From an uncultured Chloroflexia bacterium (GTDB lineage: Bacteria; Chloroflexota; Limnocylindria; Limnocylindrales; CSP1-4), in contig CAVYGJ010000002.1 in NCBI GenBank assembly GCA_963768035.1, positions 593,079 through 657,078 of the forward strand: a stretch of 64,000 nt of DNA, written 5' to 3'. Each line of letters opens with the position of its first letter. Within the stretch, counting starts at the first letter, position 1. A program made the position numbers and the translations under genes. Below the pieces are notes generated by a model. It was given only the letters and a program-made list of their open reading frames with translations. It ran no database searches and was not told the origin of the DNA. Positions 2,926 through 55,067 of this stretch are shown one piece after another.

Positions 2926-3947
2926 ATGTCCGCGAACGGCGTTCCCCGGGCACCCGGCGAGGTGGGTACGCCTGTCGGAAGCCCGTCGCCACGTGGTCGC
3001 CGGCTCGCTGCCGTGGTCGCCGTCGTCGTCCTGGGCCTCGTCGTCGCCGGGGTGGTGACACGCGTCGCGCGACCGACCGTCTCGCTCCCCACGTTCATCG
3101 CAGCGCCGGTCGCCACGCCGGCCCCGGGCGCGTCCTTGAGGGTTGCCTCGATCCCGGACCTGCTGACGGCGCTCGCCGACGACACGGTGACCGAGATCGT
3201 CGTGGCGAACGGGACGTACCGGGTGAGCCCTGCAGCACTCCAGCGCCCGGACTCGCTGTGGATCGGCTCGCGGTTCGCCGCCCGCACGCGGCCTGTCAGT
3301 GTCCGAGCCGAGACGCGCGGGAGCGTGATCTTTGACGGCGGCGGCTGCGACCTACTTCGGCGGGCTGACGTTCGTGGACGGCGCCCACGATCAGACGTGG
3401 GACGGGTTCAAGTTCGCCAACGGCCAGGCCACCGACACCGGCGTGATCGTGTTCGGCGGGTATCGCGGGCCTGCCCGCCCCGCACCACATCACGCTCCGG
3501 TCCATCTCGATCCTGGCAAGCGTGACCGGGCACAACGAGCGCAACGACCACGGGATCTACTTCTCGCACGCGGTCGGTGGCCCGCACGACCTCCTGCGTC
3601 GAGGACCTCACGGTCGACGGCAGCGGGCCGACGCCCCTGTCCACCGCCCTCGTCTTCTTCCACTCGGACGCCGCAAACGAGAACGCCTGGAAGACGACGA
3701 TCCGTCGACTCACTGTTGTCGGGACGTACACGGCGGTCATCGATCTGGGATCGCCACGCTCCACGACGTCACGATCGACGGCGCGAGCATCTCCCACCCG
3801 ATCTACGGCGCGGTCCAGTACGAGCAGCCCGGCCAGGCGATCACGCTCGCGAACATGGTCTCCGTCGGGTCGGGCAGGTTCGGCTTCTACAGCACGCTCG
3901 GCGACGATCCGCCCGGGATCACGATCACGGACTGCTCGTTCAACTGA
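2926..3947 (+). pseudogene. Decayed paralog of the secreted right-handed beta-helix protein at 34545..36350 (>=4 frameshifts)
   Basis: Signal/TM N-terminus, then segments colinear with residues ~345-601 of the 34545 gene ([117 protein letters not shown]...). These are spread over frames 1>2>0>1>0, with switches near 3346, 3470, 3597 and 3757. Confidence 0.8.
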
Positions 3948-4003: not shown

Positions 4004-5275
4004 GTGATGCCCACCGCAACCGAAGCCGGCACTCCCCAGGAATCCTCCCCGCTGCCGTGTCGCTTCTGCGGCGCTCCGCTCCGCGACACGTTCGTCGATC
4101 TCGGTCCCCAGCCGCTGTGCGAGTCCTTCGTGGCGCCCGAGGACGTCGAGCGGATGGAGCCCTTCTACCCGCTGCACGTCCGGATCTGCCGCGAGTGCCT
4201 CCTCGTGCAGCTGCCGGCGCTCGTCGACCGCGAGGAGATCTTCCGCGAGTACGCGTACTTCTCGTCGTACTCGGACAGCTGGGTTGAGCACGCGAAGCGG
4301 TACGCGGAGGCAATGATCGAGCGGCACGAGCTCGGGCCGGCGAGCTTCGTGGTCGAGCTGGCCAGCAACGACGGGTACCTGCTGCAGCATTTCGTCGCCC
4401 GAGGGATCCCGGTCCTCGGGATCGAGCCTGCCCGCAACGTCGCCGCCGTCGCCGAGGCCAAGGGCGTCCCGACGATCACGGAGTTCTTCGGGCGCGACCT
4501 CGCGGGCCAGCTGCTCCGCGAGCGGGGACCCGCCGACCTCATCGCCGGCAACAACGTCCTCGCGCAGGTCCCGGACCTCAACGACTTCGTCGGCGGCATC
4601 GCGATCCTGCTCGCCCCGGACGGGGTGGCGACGCTCGAGTTCCCGCACGTCGTCAGGCTCGTCGAGGGCGTCCAGTTCGACACGATCTACCACGAGCACT
4701 TCTCGTACTTCTCGCTGACCACGATCGCGAAGATCGCCGCCGCCCACGATCTTGTCGTCGTCGACGTCGACGAGCTGACGACACACGGCGGGTCGCTCCG
4801 GGTCCACCTCGCCCGGATCGATGGGACGCCGCTCATCGCGCCGGCCGTCGAGGCGCTCCTGGAGCGCGAGCGCGCCGGTGGCTACGCGGACCTCACCGGC
4901 TACGCGGGCTTCGAGGAACGCGTCCGCGCGGCCAAGTTCTCGCTGCTGACATTCCTGATCGAGGCCCGGCGGGCCGGCCGGTCGGTCGTCGGCTACGGGG
5001 CCCCGGGCAAGGGCAACACGCTGCTCAACTACTGCGGGATCCGGACCGACCTGCTCGACTACACCGTGGACCGCAACCCGTACAAGCACGGCCGGTTCAC
5101 GCCCGGTACGCGGATCCCGATCCACGACCCGTCGCGGATCGCGGAGACGAGGCCGGACGTGATCCTCATCCTTCCCTGGAACCTCGCCGACGAGATCGGG
5201 CGACAGCTCGCCTACACCCGCGAGTGGGGCGCCAGCCTCATCGTCCCCATCCCGTCCACGACGCTGATCTCCTGA
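4004..5275 (+). CDS. Zn-ribbon SAM-dependent methyltransferase of the NDP-hexose C-methyltransferase (TylCIII-like) architecture
   Basis: 423-aa ORF with N-terminal CxxC...CxxC ribbon (CRFCGAP...CRECLL), a class-I MTase core (VVELASNDGYLL) and the C-terminal C-methyltransferase-type domain (VVGYGAPGKGNTLLNY...TVDRNPYKHGRFTPGTRIPI). An ATG at 4007 is an alternative start. Confidence 0.8.
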   Translation: MMPTATEAGTPQESSPLPCRFCGAPLRDTFVDLGPQPLCESFVAPEDVERMEPFYPLHVRICRECLLVQLPALVDREEIFREYAYFSSYSDSWVEHAKRYAEAMIERHELGPASFVVELASNDGYLLQHFVARGIPVLGIEPARNVAAVAEAKGVPTITEFFGRDLAGQLLRERGPADLIAGNNVLAQVPDLNDFVGGIAILLAPDGVATLEFPHVVRLVEGVQFDTIYHEHFSYFSLTTIAKIAAAHDLVVVDVDELTTHGGSLRVHLARIDGTPLIAPAVEALLERERAGGYADLTGYAGFEERVRAAKFSLLTFLIEARRAGRSVVGYGAPGKGNTLLNYCGIRTDLLDYTVDRNPYKHGRFTPGTRIPIHDPSRIAETRPDVILILPWNLADEIGRQLAYTREWGASLIVPIPSTTLIS

Positions 5276-5737
5276 GCCGCCGATGAAGGTCGTCCTGTTC
5301 TGCGGGGGACGCGGCCTCCGCCTGCGCGAGCACAGCGAGGCGATCCCCAAGCCGATGGTCCAGATCGGCTACCGGCCGATCCTGTGGCACGTCATGCGCT
5401 ACTACGCCCACTACGGCCACCGCGACTTCATCCTGTGCCTCGGCTACCGGGCCGACGCGATCAAGGACTACTTCCTCCACTACGACGAGGCGGCGTCCAA
5501 CGACTTCGTGCTGTCCGAGGGCGGCCGCCGGGTCGAGCTCCTCGGCTCGGACATCGCGGACTGGCGGATCACGTTCGCCGACACCGGCCTGGACACGACG
5601 ATCGGCGAGCGGCTGCGCCGCGTCCGGCACCTGCTCGAGGGCGAGGAGATCTTCCTCGCCAACTACGGCGACACCCTCACCGACGCCCCGCTCGACGAGC
5701 TCGTCGAGACGTTCCGGGCGGACACGGCGACGGCGGC
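5269..5737. repeat. Left copy of a 469-bp inverted repeat (partner 8973..9441)
   Basis: Reverse complement of 8973..9441. Direct reading of both ends and the translations of all three frames agree except for one synonymous site (5627 G versus the complement of 9083). It covers 14 nt upstream plus the first ~152 codons of rfbF. Confidence 0.9.
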
Positions 5738-6080
5738 GCTGCTTGCCGTGCGCCCGTCACACTCGTACTCGTTCCACGTGGTCGACACGGACGCCGACGG
5801 CCGCGTCAGGGCGATGCGCGACGTCGCGTCCGCCGACCTGCGGATCAACGGCGGCGGCTACATGTTCCGCTCGGGGATCCTCGATGCGCTGGACTCGGGC
5901 GAGGACCTCATCGACGCCCCGTTCGCGACGCTGGCGGCGGACGGGCGCCTGCTCGCCATCCCCTACGACGGCTTCTGGGAGTCGCTCGACACGCTGAAGG
6001 ACATGGAGCTGCTCCAGTCGCTCGACGCGCACGACTCCGCCCCGTGGGCGGTGTGGCGTACCGCGCCGACCGACCGGTGA
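5283..6080 (+). CDS. rfbF: Glucose-1-phosphate cytidylyltransferase
   Basis: 265-aa ORF with the [16 protein letters not shown]...IPKPMV nucleotidyltransferase signature and the RfbF-type C-terminus (FWESLDTLKD). Confidence 0.85.
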   Translation: MKVVLFCGGRGLRLREHSEAIPKPMVQIGYRPILWHVMRYYAHYGHRDFILCLGYRADAIKDYFLHYDEAASNDFVLSEGGRRVELLGSDIADWRITFADTGLDTTIGERLRRVRHLLEGEEIFLANYGDTLTDAPLDELVETFRADTATAALLAVRPSHSYSFHVVDTDADGRVRAMRDVASADLRINGGGYMFRSGILDALDSGEDLIDAPFATLAADGRLLAIPYDGFWESLDTLKDMELLQSLDAHDSAPWAVWRTAPTDR

Positions 6081-6116
6081 GCGGTGGCTGATGGCGGCGT
6101 CCTGGTGACCGGGCGC

Positions 6117-6846
6117 ATGCTCGACGGCCGCGTGGCGGTCGTGACCGGCGGCATCGAGCGGGATCGGGCGTGCGGTGACGATTGCGCTCGCGGCCGCCGG
6201 GGCGACGGTCGTGGCGGTGGGCCGGGACACGACCCGCCTGCAGGACGTCGCAGCGGCCGGGGGGCCCGACGATCGCATTGAGACGACCGTCCTCGACCTC
6301 GCCGACGACGATGCCGTTCGTGGGCTCGGCGCCGAGCTCGCCGCCGCGTACGGGGCCATCGACGTTCTCGTCCATGCCGCGGGTGACATCGCGTTCGGGC
6401 GGGTCGAGGATGCCGGCATCGACGACCTCGACCGGTTGTTCGGCGTGAACCTCCGGGCGCCCTACCTGCTGACCCAGGCGATCCTCCCACTCCTGGGCCG
6501 TCCGGGCGGGCACATCGTCTTCGTCAACTCGAGCGCCGGGGTCCGGCCCAGCGCCGGCGTCGCGGGCTATGGGGCCATGAAGCACGCGCTCCGCGGGCTC
6601 GCCGACGCCCTGCGCGACGAGGTCAACCCACTGGGCATCCGCGTGACGAGCGTCTACCCGGGCCGGACCCGCACGCCGATGCAGGCATCCGTCCATCGCT
6701 GGGAGGGACGCGCCGAGATGTCGGACGAGCTCCTCGAGCCCGAGGATGTCGCCGCGATGATCGTGGCGCTGCTCGGCCTGCCGGGCCGGGCGGAGGTCAC
6801 GGACCTGCACGTCCGGCCGGCGTATCCCCCGCGAACGGGCGCCTGA
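6117..6846 (+). pseudogene. Short-chain dehydrogenase/reductase (SDR), apparent frameshift inside the NAD-binding motif
   Basis: MLDGRVAVVTGG is in one frame and SSGIGRAVTIALAAAG...YGAMKHAL... in the next, with the switch at ~6150 inside the TGxxxGIG motif. The catalytic YxxxK (YGAMK) is present. Confidence 0.7.
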
Positions 6847-6867
6847 ACGGCGGCGTGACGCCCCGGC

Positions 6868-7914
6868 TCAGGGCTCCGCGGCAACGCCCGGCACGAAGCG
6901 CAGGTCGGGGGCGAGCGACCCGTCGGCGAGGCGCTGGCGGATGCGGGCGATCCGCTGGAAGCGGGGACCCTCGACCTCGTCCATGGTGAGGCCCGTCGCC
7001 GCGAACGCCGTCGCGAGCTCGGCGGCGCCCCGCCGCGCGTCCCACTCCGCCTCGAACCCGAGCGCGTCGGCGAACCGGTCGCCGTTGACGCGGTAGTTGC
7101 GCGCGTCCGGCGAGGCGTCGGAGGCGATCTCCACCTCGCAGCCCGGGAGGGCATCCGCGACCAGGGCCGCGAGGTCGCGGACCTGGTAGTTCTCCTGCGT
7201 CGAGACGACGTTGAACGCCTTGCCGCCGACGACCTCGTGCGGGGCGTCGAGCGCGAGCAGGAACGCCTTGGCGATGTCCCGGATGTGGACGATCGGCCGC
7301 CACGGCGTGCCGTCGCTCTTGAGGCGGACGGCGCCGGTCGTGTGCGCCCAGGCGACGAGGTTGTTGAGGACGACGTCACAGCGGAGGCGGGGCGAGACGC
7401 CGTATGCGGTGGCATTGCGCAGCGAGACGACCGTGTAGTCGGGACCGTCGAGCCCCACGATGTCGCGCTCCACGCGCACCTTCGACTCGCCGTATGGGGT
7501 CACCGGGCGAAGCGGCGAGTCCTCGTCGAGCATCGCGCCGCCGGCCGCGCCGTAGTTGCTGCACGACGACGAGAACAGGAACCGCTTGACGCCGGCCTCG
7601 CGGCCGATGGTCGCCAGGCGGACGCTCGCAAGGTGGTTGATGTCGAAGGTCAGCTCGGAGTCGAGGTCGCCGAGCGGGTCGTTGGACAGCGCGCCGAGGT
7701 GGACGATCGCGTCGATCCCGTCGAGCTGCTCCACCCGCACGTCCCTGAGGTCGGCATCCACGCGGGAGACCGTCGGCACGAGCGACGGGTCGCCGAACGT
7801 GCACCCCCGGTACAGGTCGGTGTCGAGCCCGACGACCTCGTGGCCGGCGTCCTGGAAGATCGGGACCAGGACAGACCCGATGTACCCGAGATGGCCGGTG
7901 ACGAGAACCCGCAT
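6868..7914 (-). CDS. NAD-dependent nucleotide-sugar epimerase/dehydratase (extended SDR)
   Basis: 348 aa starting [14 protein letters not shown] (GxxGxxG) with catalytic YGESK. This is the downstream part of track ORF 6868..8919, whose upstream extension is a shadow frame. Confidence 0.85.
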
Positions 7915-7940
7915 GCGCGCTGCCTCCGTGGGCTGGTGGA

Positions 7941-8600
7941 CTAGACGACGAGCTTCCGGCAGACGAACGCCTCGGCCGACCCATCGGCCGCACGGCACTC
8001 GATCCCGCGGAGCCGGAGCACCGCCCGGAAGGTGGCTTCGGAGAACCAGTCGCGTCCCGCCTGGGAGGGGAACGCGGCGAGGATGTGGTCGATCTTGGCG
8101 TCGGCGTCGTCGGCCGACAGCGGGACGTACAGGTTCGCCGGGCCCAGGTCGCCGTCCCACTTCGGGACCTCGTACTCGAGGATCGTCGCCCGGCGGAAGA
8201 CCTGCGGCAGCAGCTCTGCCGCCAGCCGGTGGTCCTGGTGGGCATCGTCGCGGCGGGGCCCGATGACGAGATCCGGATCCGCACCGGCGTGGGCGGCGAC
8301 CGCGTCCTTCGCCTCGGAGCCGAGGTACGGCAGGTAGCCGTCGCGGAGGTCGCGGATATCGGTCGTGCGTGAGGCCGCACCGGCGAGGAGGCGTCCGGCG
8401 CTCGCCTCCGCCTCGCTTGCGCGGGCCGGGTCCGGGGCCGCCAGCACGAGCCAGGTGACGCTGCTGTCGGGCCGCTCCGCGAGGAGGCGCAGGATCGTGC
8501 CGCCCGCACCGATCTCGGCGTCGTCGGCGTGTGCCCCGACCACGAGGATTGTGGGGCCTCGATCGACCGGCAGCCCGAGCCGCTCGGTGAGCGCCCTCAC
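7941..8600 (-). CDS. PIG-L/LmbE-family N-acetylglucosaminyl deacetylase
   Basis: [17 protein letters not shown] and HQDH motifs. The preferred GTG start at 8600 overlaps the rfbF-2 stop (GTGA). An ATG at 8666 is an alternative start. Confidence 0.75.
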
Positions 8601-9427
8601 GACGCCGGGCCGCCGGCGGCTGGCGTCGCGTCCGGCGGCGAGTCGGATCGTTCCCAGGCCATCCATGGCGCCTGCTTCGCCACGGCCAGCGACTGGAGGT
8701 GCTCGAGGTCCCGCAGCGTGTCCAGCGGACCCCAGAACCCCTCGTACTTCGTCGCCCGGAGTCGTCCCTGCTCGACGAGCCGCGCGAACGGCTGCTCGAC
8801 GAGCTCGTCGCCGGGCTCGAGGACGCTGAAGATCTCGTCCCGGAGGATGAAGTAGCCCCCGTTGATCCAGATGTCCGCGTCGGCGGGATGGAGCAGGCGC
8901 GTGACCCTGGAGGCGGCATCGGCGTCGACGATCCGGATCGGGTAGACCGACGGCCTGACCGCGAGGAAGGAGGCCGCCGTCGCCGTGTCCGCCCGGAACG
9001 TCTCGACGAGCTCGTCGAGCGGGGCGTCGGTGAGGGTGTCGCCGTAGTTGGCGAGGAAGATCTCCTCGCCCTCGAGCAGGTGGCGGACGCGGCGCAGCCG
9101 CTCGCCGATCGTCGTGTCCAGGCCGGTGTCGGCGAACGTGATCCGCCAGTCCGCGATGTCCGAGCCGAGGAGCTCGACCCGGCGGCCGCCCTCGGACAGC
9201 ACGAAGTCGTTGGACGCCGCCTCGTCGTAGTGGAGGAAGTAGTCCTTGATCGCGTCGGCCCGGTAGCCGAGGCACAGGATGAAGTCGCGGTGGCCGTAGT
9301 GGGCGTAGTAGCGCATGACGTGCCACAGGATCGGCCGGTAGCCGATCTGGACCATCGGCTTGGGGATCGCCTCGCTGTGCTCGCGCAGGCGGAGGCCGCG
9401 TCCCCCGCAGAACAGGACGACCTTCAT
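8597..9427 (-). CDS. rfbF: Glucose-1-phosphate cytidylyltransferase, second paralog
   Basis: 276 aa. The first ~152 aa are identical to the 5283 gene; the C-terminal half is divergent but still RfbF-like ([21 protein letters not shown]). Confidence 0.85.
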
Positions 9428-9441
9428 CGGCGGCTCAGGAG
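8973..9441. repeat. Right copy of the 469-bp inverted repeat (partner 5269..5737)
   Basis: See the left copy. The boundaries were read base by base at both ends. Confidence 0.9.
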
Positions 9442-9473: not shown

Positions 9474-10724
9474 TCATCGTACGACGTCCCCCTCGGCTGG
9501 GCGCTCCCCGCCGGGTTTACTGGCGGCGACGTCGGCCAGGCGCGGCACGGCGACGAGGAACCGCGTGCCGGACAGCTCCGGGATCGCGAGCGACGCACGG
9601 ATCTCAGGCGCCAGGTCCCACGCGAGGACGAGGATCTCGTCGGGTGGCTCCGCGGCGAGCGCCGCAGGCTCCAGGATCGGGATCCTGACCCCCGGGATCA
9701 TCCGGCCGTGCTTCGCCGCCGCCCGGTCGACCGTGTACGGGAGGAGCTCCGGCCCGACGCCGAGCGCGTTGAGGAACGTGATCGAACGGGCCGGCGCGCC
9801 ATAGCCCACGACCCGCCGCCCTGACCCGTGGGCCTCGCGAAGGTGGGCCGGCACCTCGCGCCGGGCCGTCTCCACGGCGTCGCCGAGGACCGCTAGGCCT
9901 GCCGGACGGTCGATCGCACCGGCCGCCTCGCGGTCGAGCTCCCGCGAAACGGTCGCGCCACGGCCACTCCCGGCGGTGCGAGCCGTCACCCGGAGCGACC
10001 CGCCGTAGACCGGCTGCGGCGTCGCATCGATCACGTCGAGGCCGGCCGCCTCGAGCTCGCGTGCCAGCCAGCCCAGTGCGAGATATGTCTGGTGGCCGTG
10101 GCGGATGGCGTCCCACTGGCCGCCCTCCACGGTCGCGAGCAGGTGGTCGAGCTCCAGGACGAGGGTCCCGCCCGGCGCGAGCAGGCCGGCCAGGCGGCGG
10201 ACCGCGAGTCGCGGCCGCTCGAGGTGCGCCAGCAGGTAGGAGTCCACGACGAGGTCGAACGAGCCGGGGGTCAGGCCCGGCGGCAGCGTGTCCCCGTCGA
10301 GCGTCCCGACCATCACCTCGCTGCCGCCCGCGGCGAGTCGCGCCGCCCGCACCGGCGAGCCCTCCAGGATGGTTGCCCGCAGACCGCGTTCCGCGAGGAA
10401 CGGCGCGAGATGGCCGCCGTGGCTCGCCACCGACAGGATCCGGGACGCCGGCGTCGCGAGCCCCCGCGCCAGGATGTCGTCAACGAACGCTCGCGCGTGC
10501 GCCGACATCATCGCCGAGGACAACGGCGACGGCCCGTCAGGCTCGTCCGCCTCCGACGGGCTGGGGTCGACCAGCTGGGCAAGCCCGCACGCCAGGCACA
10601 CCCCGAGCCGCAATGGCAGCCGCTCGTCGGGCGGGTCGTCCGGCGCGGGGAAGCCGCCGCCCGACGGCTGTGCGCCAAGGTCGATGACCGGGGCGAGCAG
10701 GCCGCCGCAGGCCCGACAGGCCAC
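9474..10724 (-). CDS. Zn-ribbon SAM methyltransferase, divergent paralog of 4004..5275 (C-methyltransferase-like)
   Basis: 416 aa with CRACGG...CLACGL ribbon and the C-terminal VVGYGAPARSITFLN...TVDRAAAKHGRMIPGVRIPI block shared with the 4004 gene. Confidence 0.75.
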   Translation of the reverse strand: MACRACGGLLAPVIDLGAQPSGGGFPAPDDPPDERLPLRLGVCLACGLAQLVDPSPSEADEPDGPSPLSSAMMSAHARAFVDDILARGLATPASRILSVASHGGHLAPFLAERGLRATILEGSPVRAARLAAGGSEVMVGTLDGDTLPPGLTPGSFDLVVDSYLLAHLERPRLAVRRLAGLLAPGGTLVLELDHLLATVEGGQWDAIRHGHQTYLALGWLARELEAAGLDVIDATPQPVYGGSLRVTARTAGSGRGATVSRELDREAAGAIDRPAGLAVLGDAVETARREVPAHLREAHGSGRRVVGYGAPARSITFLNALGVGPELLPYTVDRAAAKHGRMIPGVRIPILEPAALAAEPPDEILVLAWDLAPEIRASLAIPELSGTRFLVAVPRLADVAASKPGGERPAEGDVVR

Positions 10725-10752: not shown

Positions 10753-11226
10753 TCAGCGATGGAGGACCGCCCAGTCGTATGGGATGTCGTCGCCGAAGGG
10801 GTCCAGACGCTCCGTGCGGGCCGGGTCGTGGGGGTGCGTCGCGCAGTTCGCGACGAGCGAGATGTCGTCCATGCCCTTCATGCCGTTCCACACGAACGGC
10901 GGGATCACGACCAGCGAGTAGTCGTCCGGCCCGAGGAAGCGCTCCATGAGGATGCCGCGGGTGGGCGAGCCCTCGCGGTCGTCGTACAGCACGAGCTTCA
11001 CGCGTCCCACCGGGCAGGCGTAGTTAAGCGTCATGTCCGCGTGGCGGTGCCATCCTTTGATGGCGTCGCGGTAGATCGTTGTGAAGTAGATCTCGCCGAA
11101 CTCCCGGAAGTGGGGATCGGTGCGGCGCAGCATGTGGAAGATGGTCCCGCGCTCGTCGGGGATCCGCCGCAACGGCACCACGAACACGCCCTCGATCGCC
11201 GCCACCTGTTCTCCCTGTTGGGTCAC
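10753..11226 (-). CDS. RmlC-like cupin (dTDP-4-dehydrorhamnose 3,5-epimerase family, short form)
   Basis: Motifs ...IPDERGTIFHMLR...GEIYFTTIYRDAIKGWHRH... The GTG start at 11226 overlaps the upstream stop (GTGA). The upstream extension in the track ORF was judged non-coding. Confidence 0.75.
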   Translation of the reverse strand: MTQQGEQVAAIEGVFVVPLRRIPDERGTIFHMLRRTDPHFREFGEIYFTTIYRDAIKGWHRHADMTLNYACPVGRVKLVLYDDREGSPTRGILMERFLGPDDYSLVVIPPFVWNGMKGMDDISLVANCATHPHDPARTERLDPFGDDIPYDWAVLHR

Positions 11227-11978
11227 GACGCACGCTCCTGTCGGGCACGGAGGTCGGCGGCCTTCCGCCAGTAGGTCAGCCGGTGAGTGCGTGGGGCGAA
11301 ATTCATGGCCCACGAGCCGAGGCGCGGGCTCACGAGCAACGACGCCGCAACCGCATGCAGGAGCGGGCTCAGCCGGATGCTCCCCTGCGGCTTGCGGCCG
11401 AGGTCCGAAAGGCGCTGCAGCGGCATGCTCACGACGTTCGGGTTCGTCGGCTTGCGGATGACGAAGTCGTAGACCAGCATGACTCCCCCTGGGCGCACGA
11501 CACGTTCCATCTCGGCAAACAGGGCGCGCTGGAGTTCGGCGTCGCGGATCGATGAGAACACCGTGGACGCCGTCGCGACGTCAAACGTGGCGTCGGGGAA
11601 CGGGATCGTCGGACCGTCGCTCAGCCTGAGGTCGACCCCAGGGCACAGGTCGCGCGCGGTCGCCAGCCGGACTTCTGTCAGGTCGACTCCGGCGAGGAGG
11701 TCCGGCGTCCAGCCCGCCACCTCAAGGGCATGCAGGTCGCCGCCGCCACCGCAGCCGACGTCAAGCAGACGGGGATGTGCCATCGGCAGCAGCTGTCCCA
11801 GGAGCTGGCGCGTCGCGGTCATTCGTTCCGCTGCGAGCATTCCGGACGCTCGACGGATCACCTCGCTCCGCGGGCCGCCGCGTTCCATCCGCTCGTACAC
11901 GGCCCGGATCCGCGCGACCTCCTCTGCCTGCGCGGTCGGTTGCTGGTGCGATCCCGGCGGGGCGTCCATCGGCAGCAT
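11223..11978 (-). CDS. Class I SAM-dependent methyltransferase
   Basis: 251 aa with motif I LLDVGCGGGGDL and the post-I/II pattern (VATASTVFSSI...PGGVMLVYDF). The start is uncertain because the upstream ORF overlaps it. Confidence 0.75.
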   Translation of the reverse strand: MLPMDAPPGSHQQPTAQAEEVARIRAVYERMERGGPRSEVIRRASGMLAAERMTATRQLLGQLLPMAHPRLLDVGCGGGGDLHALEVAGWTPDLLAGVDLTEVRLATARDLCPGVDLRLSDGPTIPFPDATFDVATASTVFSSIRDAELQRALFAEMERVVRPGGVMLVYDFVIRKPTNPNVVSMPLQRLSDLGRKPQGSIRLSPLLHAVAASLLVSPRLGSWAMNFAPRTHRLTYWRKAADLRARQERAS

Positions 11979-34544: not shown

Positions 34545-36350
34545 ATGTTTTGGGATGGAGAGCGCTGGCTCCCGTCGGATGACGGCAGCCGGCAACCGAC
34601 GACGCCACCGCTGCCGCGTTCACGTCTCCGCGATTGGCTCTCGACCGCCGTGATGGGTCTCATGCTGGTCGCGCTCGTCGTGCCGGTGGTCAGCACCTCG
34701 GCGTCGACGACCTCAGGCCGCCGGCTCCTGTCCGCGTGGTCCGCCGACTCGCAGGTCAAGGTCTATCAGGAGACGAGCGCCGCGATCTCGTATCGCGGGA
34801 GCTGGCTGACCATGGCCTATCCCACCTACCTCGGCGGGCAGGCGCGAGCCTCCGACAGCGCGAACGACCGCGCGACCCTGAAGTTCAAGGGCGCCGCTGT
34901 CTCCTGGATTGGCCCGGTCGGCCCGACTCGCGGCAAAGCCCGCGTCTACATCGACGGCACCCTCGTCGCGACCGTGAACACATGGAACGCGTCGTTCATG
35001 CCCACCCGCGTGCTGTTCAAGAAGTCTTGGTCGACCGTGGGCACCCATCGCATCGGCGTGTCCAACCTGGGCACGAAGGGACACTCGACCGTCGCACTCG
35101 ACGCCCTCATCGTGCGGCTCGACACCGGCGATCAGGCCCCGCCCCCCGACGATGGCGGTGCTCCGATCGGCACGCTGCCGCCTGATCCGACGGAGGCACC
35201 GGTCGCGCCCGATCCCACGGCCCCGCCGGTCGATCCGACGCCCGATCCCACGGCGCCGCCGGTCGATCCGACGCCCGCGCCGACCGCCGCCCCGACGGCG
35301 ACGCCCGCCCCCACCGCGGCCCCGACGGCCACGCCTGCCCCAACCGCGGCCCCGACAGCGACGCCCGCACCGACGGCGACACCCGCCCCCACTGCGGCAC
35401 CGACGGCAACCCCGGCACCGACGGCAACCCCGACTCCCAGGCCGACCGCGACACCGGCGCCCACGGTCGCCCCGACGCCCGCCCCGACCCCGACTCCCAG
35501 GCCGACCGCGACGCCGACGCCGACGCCGACGCCGCCAAGCGCGTCCAGCGTGCGGGTCAACACCATTCCGGCGCTGCTCACGGCGCTCGCGGACAACACC
35601 GTCACTGACGTCGTCGTCGCGAACGGGACCTACCACGTGAGCACTGCAGGAAGCCTGCGGACCGACTCGCTGTGGATCGGCTCACGGTTCGCCGGCCGCA
35701 CGCAGCCCGTGACGGTACGAGCCGAGACCCGTGGCGGCGTCACGTTCGACGGCGGCGGAACGACCTCCTTCGGTGCGCTGTCGTTCGTCGAGGGCGCCCA
35801 CGACCAGACCTGGGACGGGTTCAACTTCGCACATGGTCAGGCGACTGACACGGGCGTCATCGTCTTCGGTGGCTACGCCGGCAGGGCCGCACCGCACCAC
35901 ATCACCCTGCGCAACATCAAGGTGCTATCGACCAGCACCGGCCGCGGTGGCGTGAACGACCACGCGATCTACTTCTCCTACGCCGTGGGTGGACCGCACG
36001 ACATTCTCCTCGAGGACGTCAACGTGGACGGGTCCGGCGGCCTCGCCACGGCGCTCCACTTCTACCACTCCGACAGCGCCAACCGGAACGCCTGGAACGT
36101 GACAGTGCGCCGTCTCGTAGCCGACCGTACGCAGCAGGCGATCATGCTCTGGGACTCGTCACTGAGGAACATCACGATCGACGGCGCATCGATCACCAAC
36201 TCGCGCGACATGGCAGTGAGCTACCAGTACGCGGCCTCCGGCATCGTGATCTCCAACACGACGTCGACGGGCTCCGGCCAAATTGGCTTCTACAGCCCGA
36301 TGGGCGCCAACCCACCCGGCATGACATTCGTCAACGCCAGCCTCAAGTAA
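34545..36350 (+). CDS. Secreted or anchored protein: N-terminal TM, beta-sandwich carbohydrate-binding-like domain, Pro/Thr/Ala linker, C-terminal right-handed parallel beta-helix (pectate-lyase-fold) domain
   Basis: 601-aa ORF. The hydrophobic segment is [15 protein letters not shown]. The region YRGSW...[17 protein letters not shown]...ARVYIDG...GTHRIGV resembles CBM-type modules. About 110 aa form a PT-rich linker. The C-terminal 260 aa have beta-helix-like periodicity (VVANGTYHV..., [26 protein letters not shown]). Confidence 0.75.
35211..35540 (+). repeat. In-frame tandem repeats encoding the Pro/Thr/Ala linker
   Basis: 33-nt unit x2 (35211-35243, 35244-35276; [11 protein letters not shown]). 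About four 30-nt units follow ([10 protein letters not shown]). CCGACTCCCAGGCCGACCGCGAC occurs twice (near 35430 and 35490). Confidence 0.85.
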
Positions 36351-53348: not shown

Positions 53349-55067
53349 ATGCGCCACGCAGCCCGAGTCATCTTCGCGGCCGTGCTCGCCGTCGGTGGAT
53401 ACCTGCCGGCTGCGGTGGTCGCGACCGCGCCCGTCGCGGAGGCGGTCGGCAGCGCGGCCACGGGGACCTGGTCGACGCTCGGCGAGTACCGCGTGAGCCC
53501 CAAGCCCACGAGCCTGACGAACCGCAGCCGCGAGCCGATCGTGACGGCCCACCCGTCCAATCCGCTTCGGCTGGCCGTCGTCTATGCCGCCGGCCCGGGC
53601 GAGGAGAGCCACCCCGTCGTCCGGATCAGCCGCGATGGCGGCAAGACGTGGCGGTCGACCTCGGGCCACCCGCGGGGCGGCGGCAGCCACCCGATGGTCG
53701 CGTGGGGCCCGGGTCCGACCCGTGGCTCGGCGCGGCTGTGGTACACGGCGATGGTCGGCGACCCGAACAACTACCACTTCGGCGTGAGCTACAGCGACAA
53801 CGAGGGCACGACCTGGCACCTGTCCTACATCGCCGACAACACGCGCGGCTGGTTCGGCGGGATGGAGGACATCACCGTCGACACGAACCTGGCGAGCCCG
53901 AACTTCGGCGCGATCTACCTCGCCTACAACTGGCCGAAGGACCCCAATGGCGGCGACGGGCTGCGGGTCATCGCGTCGCGCAACTTCGGGCGGACCTGGT
54001 CCGAGACCGAGATCCCGAAGGTCACGCCGCCGACCGGCTACGGCGACGCGTGGCGCATCGGCTACAAGCTGACGACCGCCCCCGACGGCGCCGCGTACGT
54101 GGCGGGCTACCAGCTCGACATGAAGCACTGGAGCATCACCTGCCCGTTCTGCAAGGGCGGTACCTCGAACGTCGGGCGGATCGTGTTCGGCGTCGTCGCG
54201 GCTGCACCTCGACCGGGCGACCGGCAGGCTCACCCATTCGGCGAACGTGCTCGCGACGAGGCTGCCGGAGACCTCGTGGAACCTCGGCTACACGTCGTGG
54301 CTCAAGGGCGTGAACGTCGGTCTCGCCGAGCCGTGCTGGGCGACGGGCCTCGTCGTCGATGCGAAGGGCCGGATCTACTACGCCGTCGCGGGCGACGGCC
54401 GGATCCGGATCGTCTACAGCGACGACCGTGGCCGCACATGGCACACGCGCTACCTGCCCCACGCCCCCGGCGCGAACGGCCGGTCGCAGCTGTCGATGCG
54501 CCCCGAGCTCGTCGTGGGCGACGGGTTCCTGGCCGTCCTGTTCCACACCGTCGATGCGTCCGGCAGCAGCCGGACCGCCGGCAACGCCGTGGCGGTGAGC
54601 TTCAACCGGGGCGCGACGTGGGTGGGGCCGAAGCCCGTCAACGGCCATCGCTGGGCCATCGCGCGGATCATCGCGCGCTACAACGGGCCCGGCCTCCGCG
54701 ACGAGGCGACGCTGCTCGCGGACGGCAGGACGATCTACTTCGCGTACGGCGACGGTCGCGACGGGCTGTCGGCCGCGTTCGGCGCGCGGATCCGCGTGAC
54801 GCTCCCCGTGGCGCCGCCGCCTCCGCCGCCCCCGTCGCCGACACCCACACCCACGCCGCCGCCGACACCCACGCCGGCGCCCACGGACACGCCCGCGCCC
54901 GCGGCGCCGGTCGCCACGCCTGCCCCCACGGCGACCCCGACGCCGGTCCGACGCCCGCCGCCCACGCCGCGCCGACGCCGCCGACCCCGCCACCGACGGC
55001 CCCGCCGACCCCGACGCCCGAGCCGCCGACCGACCCGCCCGCGTCACCGTCGGTCGAGCCCGGCTGA
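53349..55067 (+). pseudogene. Secreted BNR/Asp-box repeat (sialidase-fold) protein with a Pro/Thr-rich tail; frame changes near 54200 and probably 54948
   Basis: Signal peptide, then five SxDxGxTW-type boxes (SRDGGKTW, SDNEGTTW, SRNFGRTW, SDDRGRTW, SFNRGATW). The first three are in frame 0 and the last two in frame 1. The PT-rich end with the stop at 55067 is back in frame 0. Confidence 0.75.

Follow-up and report, generated by a model that had tools for sequence, protein, structure and literature searches.

A stretch of 64,000 nucleotides from an uncultured Chloroflexia bacterium (contig CAVYGJ010000002.1 of assembly GCA_963768035.1), hereafter called the window, raises the question of how two genes of one glycan-synthesis cluster can be the same over one half and clearly different over the other. 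The genes, rfbF1 and rfbF2, are predicted to encode glucose-1-phosphate cytidylyltransferases and are arranged tail to tail. Upstream of rfbF1 lies a gene of sugar C-methyltransferase type (MT1) and downstream of it a short-chain dehydrogenase (SDR) gene; rfbF2 is preceded by a cupin-type isomerase-like gene (ISOM) and a second methyltransferase-type gene (MT2), and followed by genes for a PIG-L-type de-N-acetylase and an epimerase. The 5' halves of the two rfbF genes are called here the N halves, and the 3' halves C1 (rfbF1) and C2 (rfbF2). The answer that we consider likely for the locus as a whole is recurrent gene conversion between old inverted paralogs, with crossovers that sometimes flip the segment between them; nothing points to a purpose-built switch.

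Structure of the inverted repeat

In a repeat search and a base-by-base comparison, positions 5269-5737 of the window were the reverse complement of 8973-9441, with 468 of the 469 nt pairing. The sole mismatch (G at 5627, compared with 9083) falls in a third codon position and is synonymous, CGG versus CGC, both coding for Arg. Of the 469 nt of each arm, 14 are leader and 455 are coding, and the first 152 residues of the two rfbF proteins are identical, while their C halves share about 47% of residues. The second arm places a copy of the MT1 stop-codon region into the spacer between MT2 and rfbF2. Outward of the arms the identity is at the level of unrelated sequence, and inward it is about 60% across the next 300 nt. 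No second inverted repeat of 60 nt or more was found in a search of the whole 64-kb window, which has a G+C content of 71.6%.

Recurrent gene conversion in related genomes

The closest genomes are metagenome-assembled genomes labelled 'uncultured Chloroflexia', and a convergent rfbF pair is present in at least six related metagenome-assembled genomes; genomes and contigs are cited by labels such as L002 where they have to be told apart. The two 5' halves of one genome are identical at 468/469 positions in the window, 512/512 in L002, 462/462 in L169 (where the 12 mismatches of the 491-nt arm all lie at +452 or beyond), 599/599 in L171, 500/505 in L003 and 425/448 in L170, and have 94% identity over 260 nt in L011. 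The counterpart in L168 is a short-read contig which ends inside the repeat. Overall, nucleotide identity of the N halves is 88-100% within a genome versus 83-92% between close genomes, L011 being set apart.

The trees of the two gene halves are discordant. In the nucleotide tree, the two N-half arms pair by genome, with 100% bootstrap for the window, L002, L169, L003 and L011 and 61.5% for L170, and the by-genome pairing has 91-100% bootstrap in the protein tree of the N halves, in which four pairs were included. The protein tree of the C halves consists of a C1 clade and a C2 clade with 100% bootstrap each, and the window's own two C halves were paired in 0 bootstrap replicates. Over the 152 codons, paralogs within a genome have 0-2 synonymous codon differences (6 in L003), whereas orthologs in different genomes have 23-44. 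With so few synonymous differences within genomes and so many between them, selection at the protein level cannot explain the identity; purifying selection was accordingly rejected as its source, since it is the synonymous sites that are homogenised within genomes.

Some similarity of the 5' halves is to be expected in any case, because conservation of the N half as protein across the family would by itself preserve a fair degree of resemblance. In a set of 120 close homologs, C1-type and C2-type proteins alike match the window at 78-100% of the N-terminal 152 residues; C1-type and C2-type C halves share about 45-50% identity across the family. Where there is no sign of recent conversion, the 5' halves have 75-77% nucleotide identity (L007, and L011 overall).

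The ends of the identical block also differ in a telling way. Its inner end lies between +437 and +481 in every genome, where C1 and C2 diverge, and its outer end varies, lying 7, 10, 14, 39, 68 or 147 nt upstream of the start codon. The 3' end of MT1 makes up the copied outer flank in the window and L002, and now also stands inside the MT2-rfbF2 spacer; in L171 this flank is the spacer and 89 nt of the MT2 3' end. These differing outer ends and donor sides fit independent conversion tracts that ran until homology was exhausted. Comparison of the assembled genomes thus strongly supports the view that the 5' halves have been homogenised by recurrent gene conversion, i.e. concerted evolution, in several lineages.

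An earlier note, made from the window alone, had described a 469-nt inverted repeat with one synonymous difference and sharp ends, lying between diverged 3' halves and highly diverged methyltransferases, and had attributed it to recent gene conversion. Two repeat checks and the 36% identity of MT1 and MT2 agree with that description, and the separate 5'-half and 3'-half phylogenies which it had called for gave N halves grouped by genome and C halves grouped by paralog. The conversion is thereby borne out, and goes beyond what had been claimed in being recurrent. A recent duplication of the whole module, which the note had also argued against, is rejected on the divergence of the methyltransferases and of the C halves.

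In five of five genomes, the converted N half of the plus-strand rfbF copy had a higher G+C content at third codon positions (GC3) than the C half did (window, L002, L003, L169 and L171: 0.99 versus 0.93-0.97, 0.95 versus 0.85, 0.99 versus 0.93, 0.95 versus 0.76 and 0.93 versus 0.85). For the window, positions 5283-5738 were compared with 5739-6077 and 8600-8971. The higher GC3 of the N half is consistent with GC-biased gene conversion or with stronger codon selection.

The repeat in independent assemblies

Independent carriers of the repeat were found among MEGAHIT contigs from ENA metagenomes, together with one JGI contig. In three contigs (L001, L083 and L165), the repeat connects MT1 with the C1 half, and a fourth (L167), which has 98.9% identity to the window, extends from MT2 across the repeat and the C2 half into the PIG-L gene. 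Since independent short-read contigs carry the repeat in both the MT1 and the MT2 context, it is not peculiar to this assembly, and it is not an artefact of it. At the single-nucleotide polymorphism (SNP) at 5534, both arms of the window have C, and metagenome contigs of both arm contexts have G. A metagenome scan with the shared N half gave no close relatives among the matches listed, which were distant family members of at most 72% identity.

Three of the contigs, which come from close relatives, are mosaic. L001 (1-235) follows the window at about 99% identity from position 5000 on and is sharply diverged upstream, inside MT1. In L084 (1-170), the MT1-like end and the first 100 nt of rfbF are diverged and are followed by the repeat with one mismatch. 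The homology of L083 (654-1742) to the window ends after 5809, and its rfbF1 stops at 193 amino acids. Such contigs reflect either frequent recombination between strains or chimeric assemblies.

Orientation of the segment between the arms

Two linkage states were distinguished among the related genomes. In state A, MT1-N-C1-SDR faces ISOM-MT2-N-C2-PIG-L-epimerase, as in the window, L002 and L169 and at the left junction of L168. In state B, an MT2-type gene lies upstream of a C1-type rfbF, with N-C2-PIG-L opposite, as in L170 (253 kb) and L171 (491 kb). The assignment of the C halves in these genomes follows from 66-70% identity to the matching type versus 44-46% to the other. The junction expected on the other side of a flip, MT1-repeat-C2, occurs in three short metagenome contigs, L082, L166 and L084. 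One of these, L082, can be aligned along its whole length of 1,710 nt, without gaps and at 98.7% identity, to the flipped haplotype as predicted, although it may be a chimeric MEGAHIT k141 contig; in its MT1 part the identity to the window is 99.4%. In a comparison of shared SNPs, made with respect to possible chimerism of L082, the contigs L082, L166 and L167 were distinct haplotypes.

Gene order in other bacteria indicates which state is the older. A comparison of 157 other loci, drawn from many phyla, gave 106 with PIG-L next after rfbF; directly upstream of this pair there is a methyltransferase of MT1 type in 36 of those 106, and one of MT2 type in L002 only. MT1 is thus of the type found upstream of rfbF-PIG-L in a widespread operon, and the full order MT1-rfbF-PIG-L-epimerase is seen, for example, in L011, L030, L036 and L041. 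Because a flip of the window would recreate this order, the arrangement in the window is, judged from gene order, the derived one, with its breakpoints in the rfbF genes. The segment between the arms has very probably been flipped at least once during evolution, to judge by these linkages.

The order (epimerase)-MT1-type C-methyltransferase-rfbF-PIG-L is conserved in more than 100 loci (L004-L164), belonging to Acidobacteriota, Actinomycetota, Chloroflexota, Nitrospira, Proteobacteria and others. In L003 and L170, a UDP-GlcNAc 2-epimerase-like gene takes the place of SDR downstream of the C1-type rfbF. Direct repeats are present just upstream of the rfbF locus in L003 (8103-8731 and 9044-9671; 629 nt, 99.4% identity) and in L002 (5165-6102 and 7702-8660; 960 nt, 93.9%).

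According to the earlier note, 5738-8972 would be inverted by recombination between the repeats, with both open reading frames (ORFs) kept and the downstream cistrons swapped. The geometry holds, and invertibility is supported on an evolutionary timescale, both linkage states being found among related genomes. The further proposal, that the inversion serves as a switch for sugar-modification output, is not supported: no recombinase gene was found in the nearby ORFs scanned, the proteins would not be altered and all seven genes remain in operons.

A Pfam scan of the ORFs called in positions 1-21.6 kb of the window gave no recombinase gene; the matches were to sugar-pathway and unrelated enzymes only, and three ORFs had no Pfam match. 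There was likewise no recombinase in the precomputed Pfam lists of the relatives L169 and L171. As the 152-residue prefixes are identical, a flip leaves both proteins unchanged, and the gene map indicates that, whichever way the segment lies, each of the seven genes keeps a place downstream of one of the two operon starts, so that any effect would need operon promoters that are differently regulated. A scan for promoters and terminators gave no sigma-70-type promoters and one terminator-like site, at chance level, and is uninformative for this phylum. The marks of programmed site-specific inversion, namely a nearby recombinase and a change of protein or of on/off state, were not found at this locus.

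Alternative explanations

It is hardly credible that the identity or the orientation of the repeat is an artefact of assembly or polishing. Such an origin is suggested by the indel-type frameshifts in at least three nearby genes of the window, which are typical of error-prone long-read consensus, and by the possibility of chimeric short-read contigs across repeats; against it, the repeat is present in at least six independently assembled genomes, and short-read contigs from different samples and archives cross each of its boundaries. A JGI short-read contig breaks inside the repeat, as expected of a true exact repeat, and with 469 nt the repeat is below the size of overlap that long-read assemblers collapse. 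A single homogenising event in a common ancestor, either conversion or partial duplication, with the identity kept afterwards by purifying selection and codon bias, is highly improbable. The protein sequence of the N half varies little across the family (90-96% conserved in both clades), and the GC3 of this half is extreme (0.99), which fits such a history; however, the arms within a genome should then have diverged as far as orthologs have, and they are instead identical within genomes and 8-17% different between genomes, mostly at synonymous sites. Arms that are alike within genomes and diverged between them rule out a single ancestral event, and the outer tract ends, which differ among genomes, speak against it too.

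The third alternative accepts the conversion and gives it a purpose: the repeat would be kept by selection as a recombinase-independent switch, acting through general homologous recombination and shuffling tailoring genes between two differently regulated C-methyltransferase operons. Frequent flips would change which of the two operons has SDR and which has PIG-L and the epimerase, and a population would then form alternative surface glycans. If this were true, the switch would make for glycan heterogeneity within populations of soil Chloroflexota, and the identity of the arms would be kept because it is useful. Arms that are perfect or nearly so in four separate lineages imply that conversion proceeds fast compared with mutation, both linkage states occur among relatives and possibly, in view of the close match of L082 to the window, within a species, and a glycan cluster is the kind of locus where variation is often selected. 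We nevertheless consider the idea unlikely, as a flip alters neither protein and leaves the seven genes in operons, the scans gave neither an invertase or integrase gene within 1-21.6 kb of the window nor, with no sigma-70-type sites, a promoter difference, and the arms match the block of coding homology exactly, as passive conversion predicts and unlike a recombination site.

Several observations also weigh against recurrent conversion with occasional inversion. The evidence consists of assembled sequences. Given the several frameshifts in the window, the lone mismatch between the arms may be a sequencing error. The three contigs with the MT1-repeat-C2 junction are MEGAHIT k141 contigs that pass through a repeat longer than k, and may be chimeric joins. 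A simple mirror image of the window is found in neither of the state B genomes: L170 and L171 both lack an orthologous MT1 beside N-C2, L171 is without the epimerase and L170 carries fragmented genes. As they differ from the window by more than a flip, further rearrangements must have occurred. The trees of C1, C2, PIG-L, epimerase and MT2 are star-like and fit one inversion or several alike. The C halves of L011 fall to neither type (bootstrap 3.5% and 13%), for which reason this genome was rejected as a clean case of state B; in its synteny, PIG-L and the epimerase are on the MT1-like side.

Proposed mechanism

On the view of recurrent conversion, the two cytidylyltransferase genes are ancient paralogs, which face each other across about 3.2 kb of a glycan-synthesis cluster. 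Their N halves, with the GGxGxR nucleotide-binding motif, are strongly conserved as protein, and this conservation would preserve enough likeness between the DNA copies to permit homologous recombination. By non-reciprocal exchange, which would recur and presumably depend on RecA by analogy with tufA/tufB, one 5' half would be copied over the other. The conversion tract would extend until homology ends, on the outer side at the unrelated upstream flank and on the inner side at about codon 150-160, beyond which the C1 and C2 halves differ too much. The outcome would be an inverted repeat of 450-600 bp, perfect or nearly so, that is refreshed independently in every lineage.

With the copies in inverted orientation, a share of the recombination events would be resolved as crossovers and flip the segment, so that conversion would be coupled to inversion. 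A flip would swap the C halves, together with the genes downstream of them (SDR versus PIG-L and epimerase), between the MT1 and the ISOM-MT2 operons, and the flipped form would restore the widespread operon in which MT1 precedes rfbF, PIG-L and the epimerase. We infer that the phenotype is affected little or not at all by the flip, which would be a by-product.

Genes of the locus

The features of the locus are listed in Table 1. Gene identities were assigned with Pfam, and the coding frames of the central segment (5900-9000) with a GC3 frame plot. PF00483 matches both rfbF products, which are on this basis predicted glucose-1-phosphate cytidylyltransferases, and rfbF1 has a full-length match (residues 2-258, E=5e-49) to the Salmonella enzyme of this kind, PDB 1TZF. 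A look-up of the exact rfbF2 protein gave no record, and a plasmid search gave distant methyltransferase/rfbF pairs only.

Table 1 Features of the rfbF locus, in window coordinates
Feature	Position	Strand	Length	Description
MT1	4004-5275	+		Sugar C-methyltransferase type; Methyltransf_13 (zinc-binding), Methyltransf_23 and Methyltransf_14 domains, including SAM-methyltransferase and C-methyltransferase C-terminal domains
Inverted-repeat arm 1	5269..5737	+		Last 7 nt of MT1 including stop codon, 7-nt spacer, rfbF1 codons 1-152
rfbF1	5283-6080	+		Predicted glucose-1-phosphate cytidylyltransferase; shared N half and C1 half; NTP_transferase (PF00483)
Segment between arms	5738..8972		3,235 nt	C1 half of rfbF1, SDR, epimerase, PIG-L, C2 half of rfbF2
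SDR	6117-6846	+		Short-chain dehydrogenase; frameshifted near 6150; longest open frame 6175-6846
Epimerase	6868-7914	-		NAD-dependent epimerase/dehydratase (Pfam, GC3 frame plot)
PIG-L	7941-8600	-		PIG-L/LmbE-type de-N-acetylase; GTG start overlaps rfbF2 stop codon (GTGA)
rfbF2	8597-9427	-		Predicted glucose-1-phosphate cytidylyltransferase; shared N half and C2 half
Inverted-repeat arm 2	8973..9441	-		14 nt leader and rfbF2 codons 1-152
MT2	9474-10724	-		Second C-methyltransferase-type paralog, 36% identical to MT1
ISOM	10753-11313	-		Cupin sugar epimerase/isomerase-like; dTDP_sugar_isom; first gene of ISOM-MT2-rfbF2 operon

The gene calls of the earlier map are backed by Pfam and the frame plot, except that SDR has to be read with a +1 frameshift near 6150, where an extra G ('accggcGgca') falls inside the TG(x)3GxG motif. 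The SDR ortholog of L002 is intact and reads VTGASSGIG. The surrounding glycan cluster contains genes for a GFO/MocA oxidoreductase, a DegT aminotransferase, a hexapeptide acyltransferase, a GT4 glycosyltransferase, an asparagine synthase and a flippase.

Frameshifts interrupt three genes near the locus, namely SDR, the DegT aminotransferase gene (1057-2317, split between two frames near 1270-1287) and an ORF at 3127-3941, homologous to a 331-amino-acid protein of L169 and split over three frames. The pattern looks like the indel errors of long-read consensus; real pseudogenes are possible. A direct repeat of 208 nt with 78% identity (3137-3344 and 35551-35758) belongs to two paralogs of a protein without a Pfam domain. 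The copy upstream of MT1 is fragmented, and the copy at 35544-36344 is intact, lying inside an ORF of 601 amino acids with a Pro/Thr/Ala-rich linker. Degenerate repeats of 12-30 nt at 35271-35534 and 54811-55055 code for Pro/Thr/Ala-rich stretches, which are probably linkers of secreted or cell-surface proteins.

Significance and comparison with known systems

The locus adds a clean new case to a recombination process that is already known, and reveals no new mechanism. It provides a multi-genome case, from uncultured bacteria, of concerted evolution confined to half a gene, in which a half-gene repeat would let recombination re-deal operon partners without harming either enzyme. Full-length rfbF trees in this clade will mislead, and the operon in which a tailoring gene lies here should not be taken to show the pathway to which it belongs. 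Long-read metagenomes that cover the locus could also serve as a natural test of the coupling of conversion and inversion in bacteria other than laboratory models.

Phase-variable inversion systems inside coding regions, such as type I hsdS shufflons and plasmid R64-type shufflons, and likewise the invertible capsule promoters found in Bacteroides, rely on their own tyrosine or serine recombinase, whose gene lies close by and which acts at short specific sites, and they alter a protein sequence or switch expression on and off. The rfbF locus resembles them in having inverted repeats within or beside genes of a surface or glycan locus, where inversion re-joins halves or reassigns promoters. It differs from them in that no recombinase gene was found in the parts scanned, the arms coincide with the block of homology and the proteins are unchanged. 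In plastid and other organelle genomes, large inverted repeats homogenised by conversion recombine reciprocally and give both orientations of a segment. The homogenised repeats and the varying orientation of the DNA between them are shared with the locus described here; the organelle repeats, however, are 10-25 kb long, contain whole genes including those for rRNA and belong to a multicopy genome, whereas the rfbF repeat covers half a gene on a bacterial chromosome.

In the flip/flop region of Saccharomyces chromosome XIV, paralogous genes form an inverted repeat that undergoes continual homogenisation within each species, both orientations occur across species through repeated re-inversion, and polymorphism within species was shown directly (PMC9731477). 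Here too, inverted paralogs are homogenised and the region between them is found in both linkages among relatives. The yeast system is eukaryotic, with arms of 4 kb that hold whole genes and 24 kb between them; at the rfbF locus, orientation was compared among relatives.

Conversion with inversion at tufA/tufB is the closest documented case. The co-evolution of these genes in Salmonella was reportedly worked out by Abdulkarim & Hughes (1996) and Hughes (2000), both cited in PMC5485169. In Salmonella enterica, tufA and tufB are inversely oriented paralogs kept near-identical by recombination-dependent gene conversion, and a large share of the conversion events also invert the intervening DNA (PMC5485169, PMC6735719). 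Inverted paralogs on one chromosome are homogenised by conversion in both systems, but the tuf genes are homogenised over their full length and lie hundreds of kb apart, whereas conversion at the rfbF locus is confined to the 5' half (about 470-600 bp) of genes 1.5-3.6 kb apart. The unconverted 3' halves are, in contrast to tufA/tufB, ancient paralogs (about 47% identity), and because they differ, a crossover between the rfbF genes would give chimeric genes that have the same sequences as before and have exchanged their operon partners.

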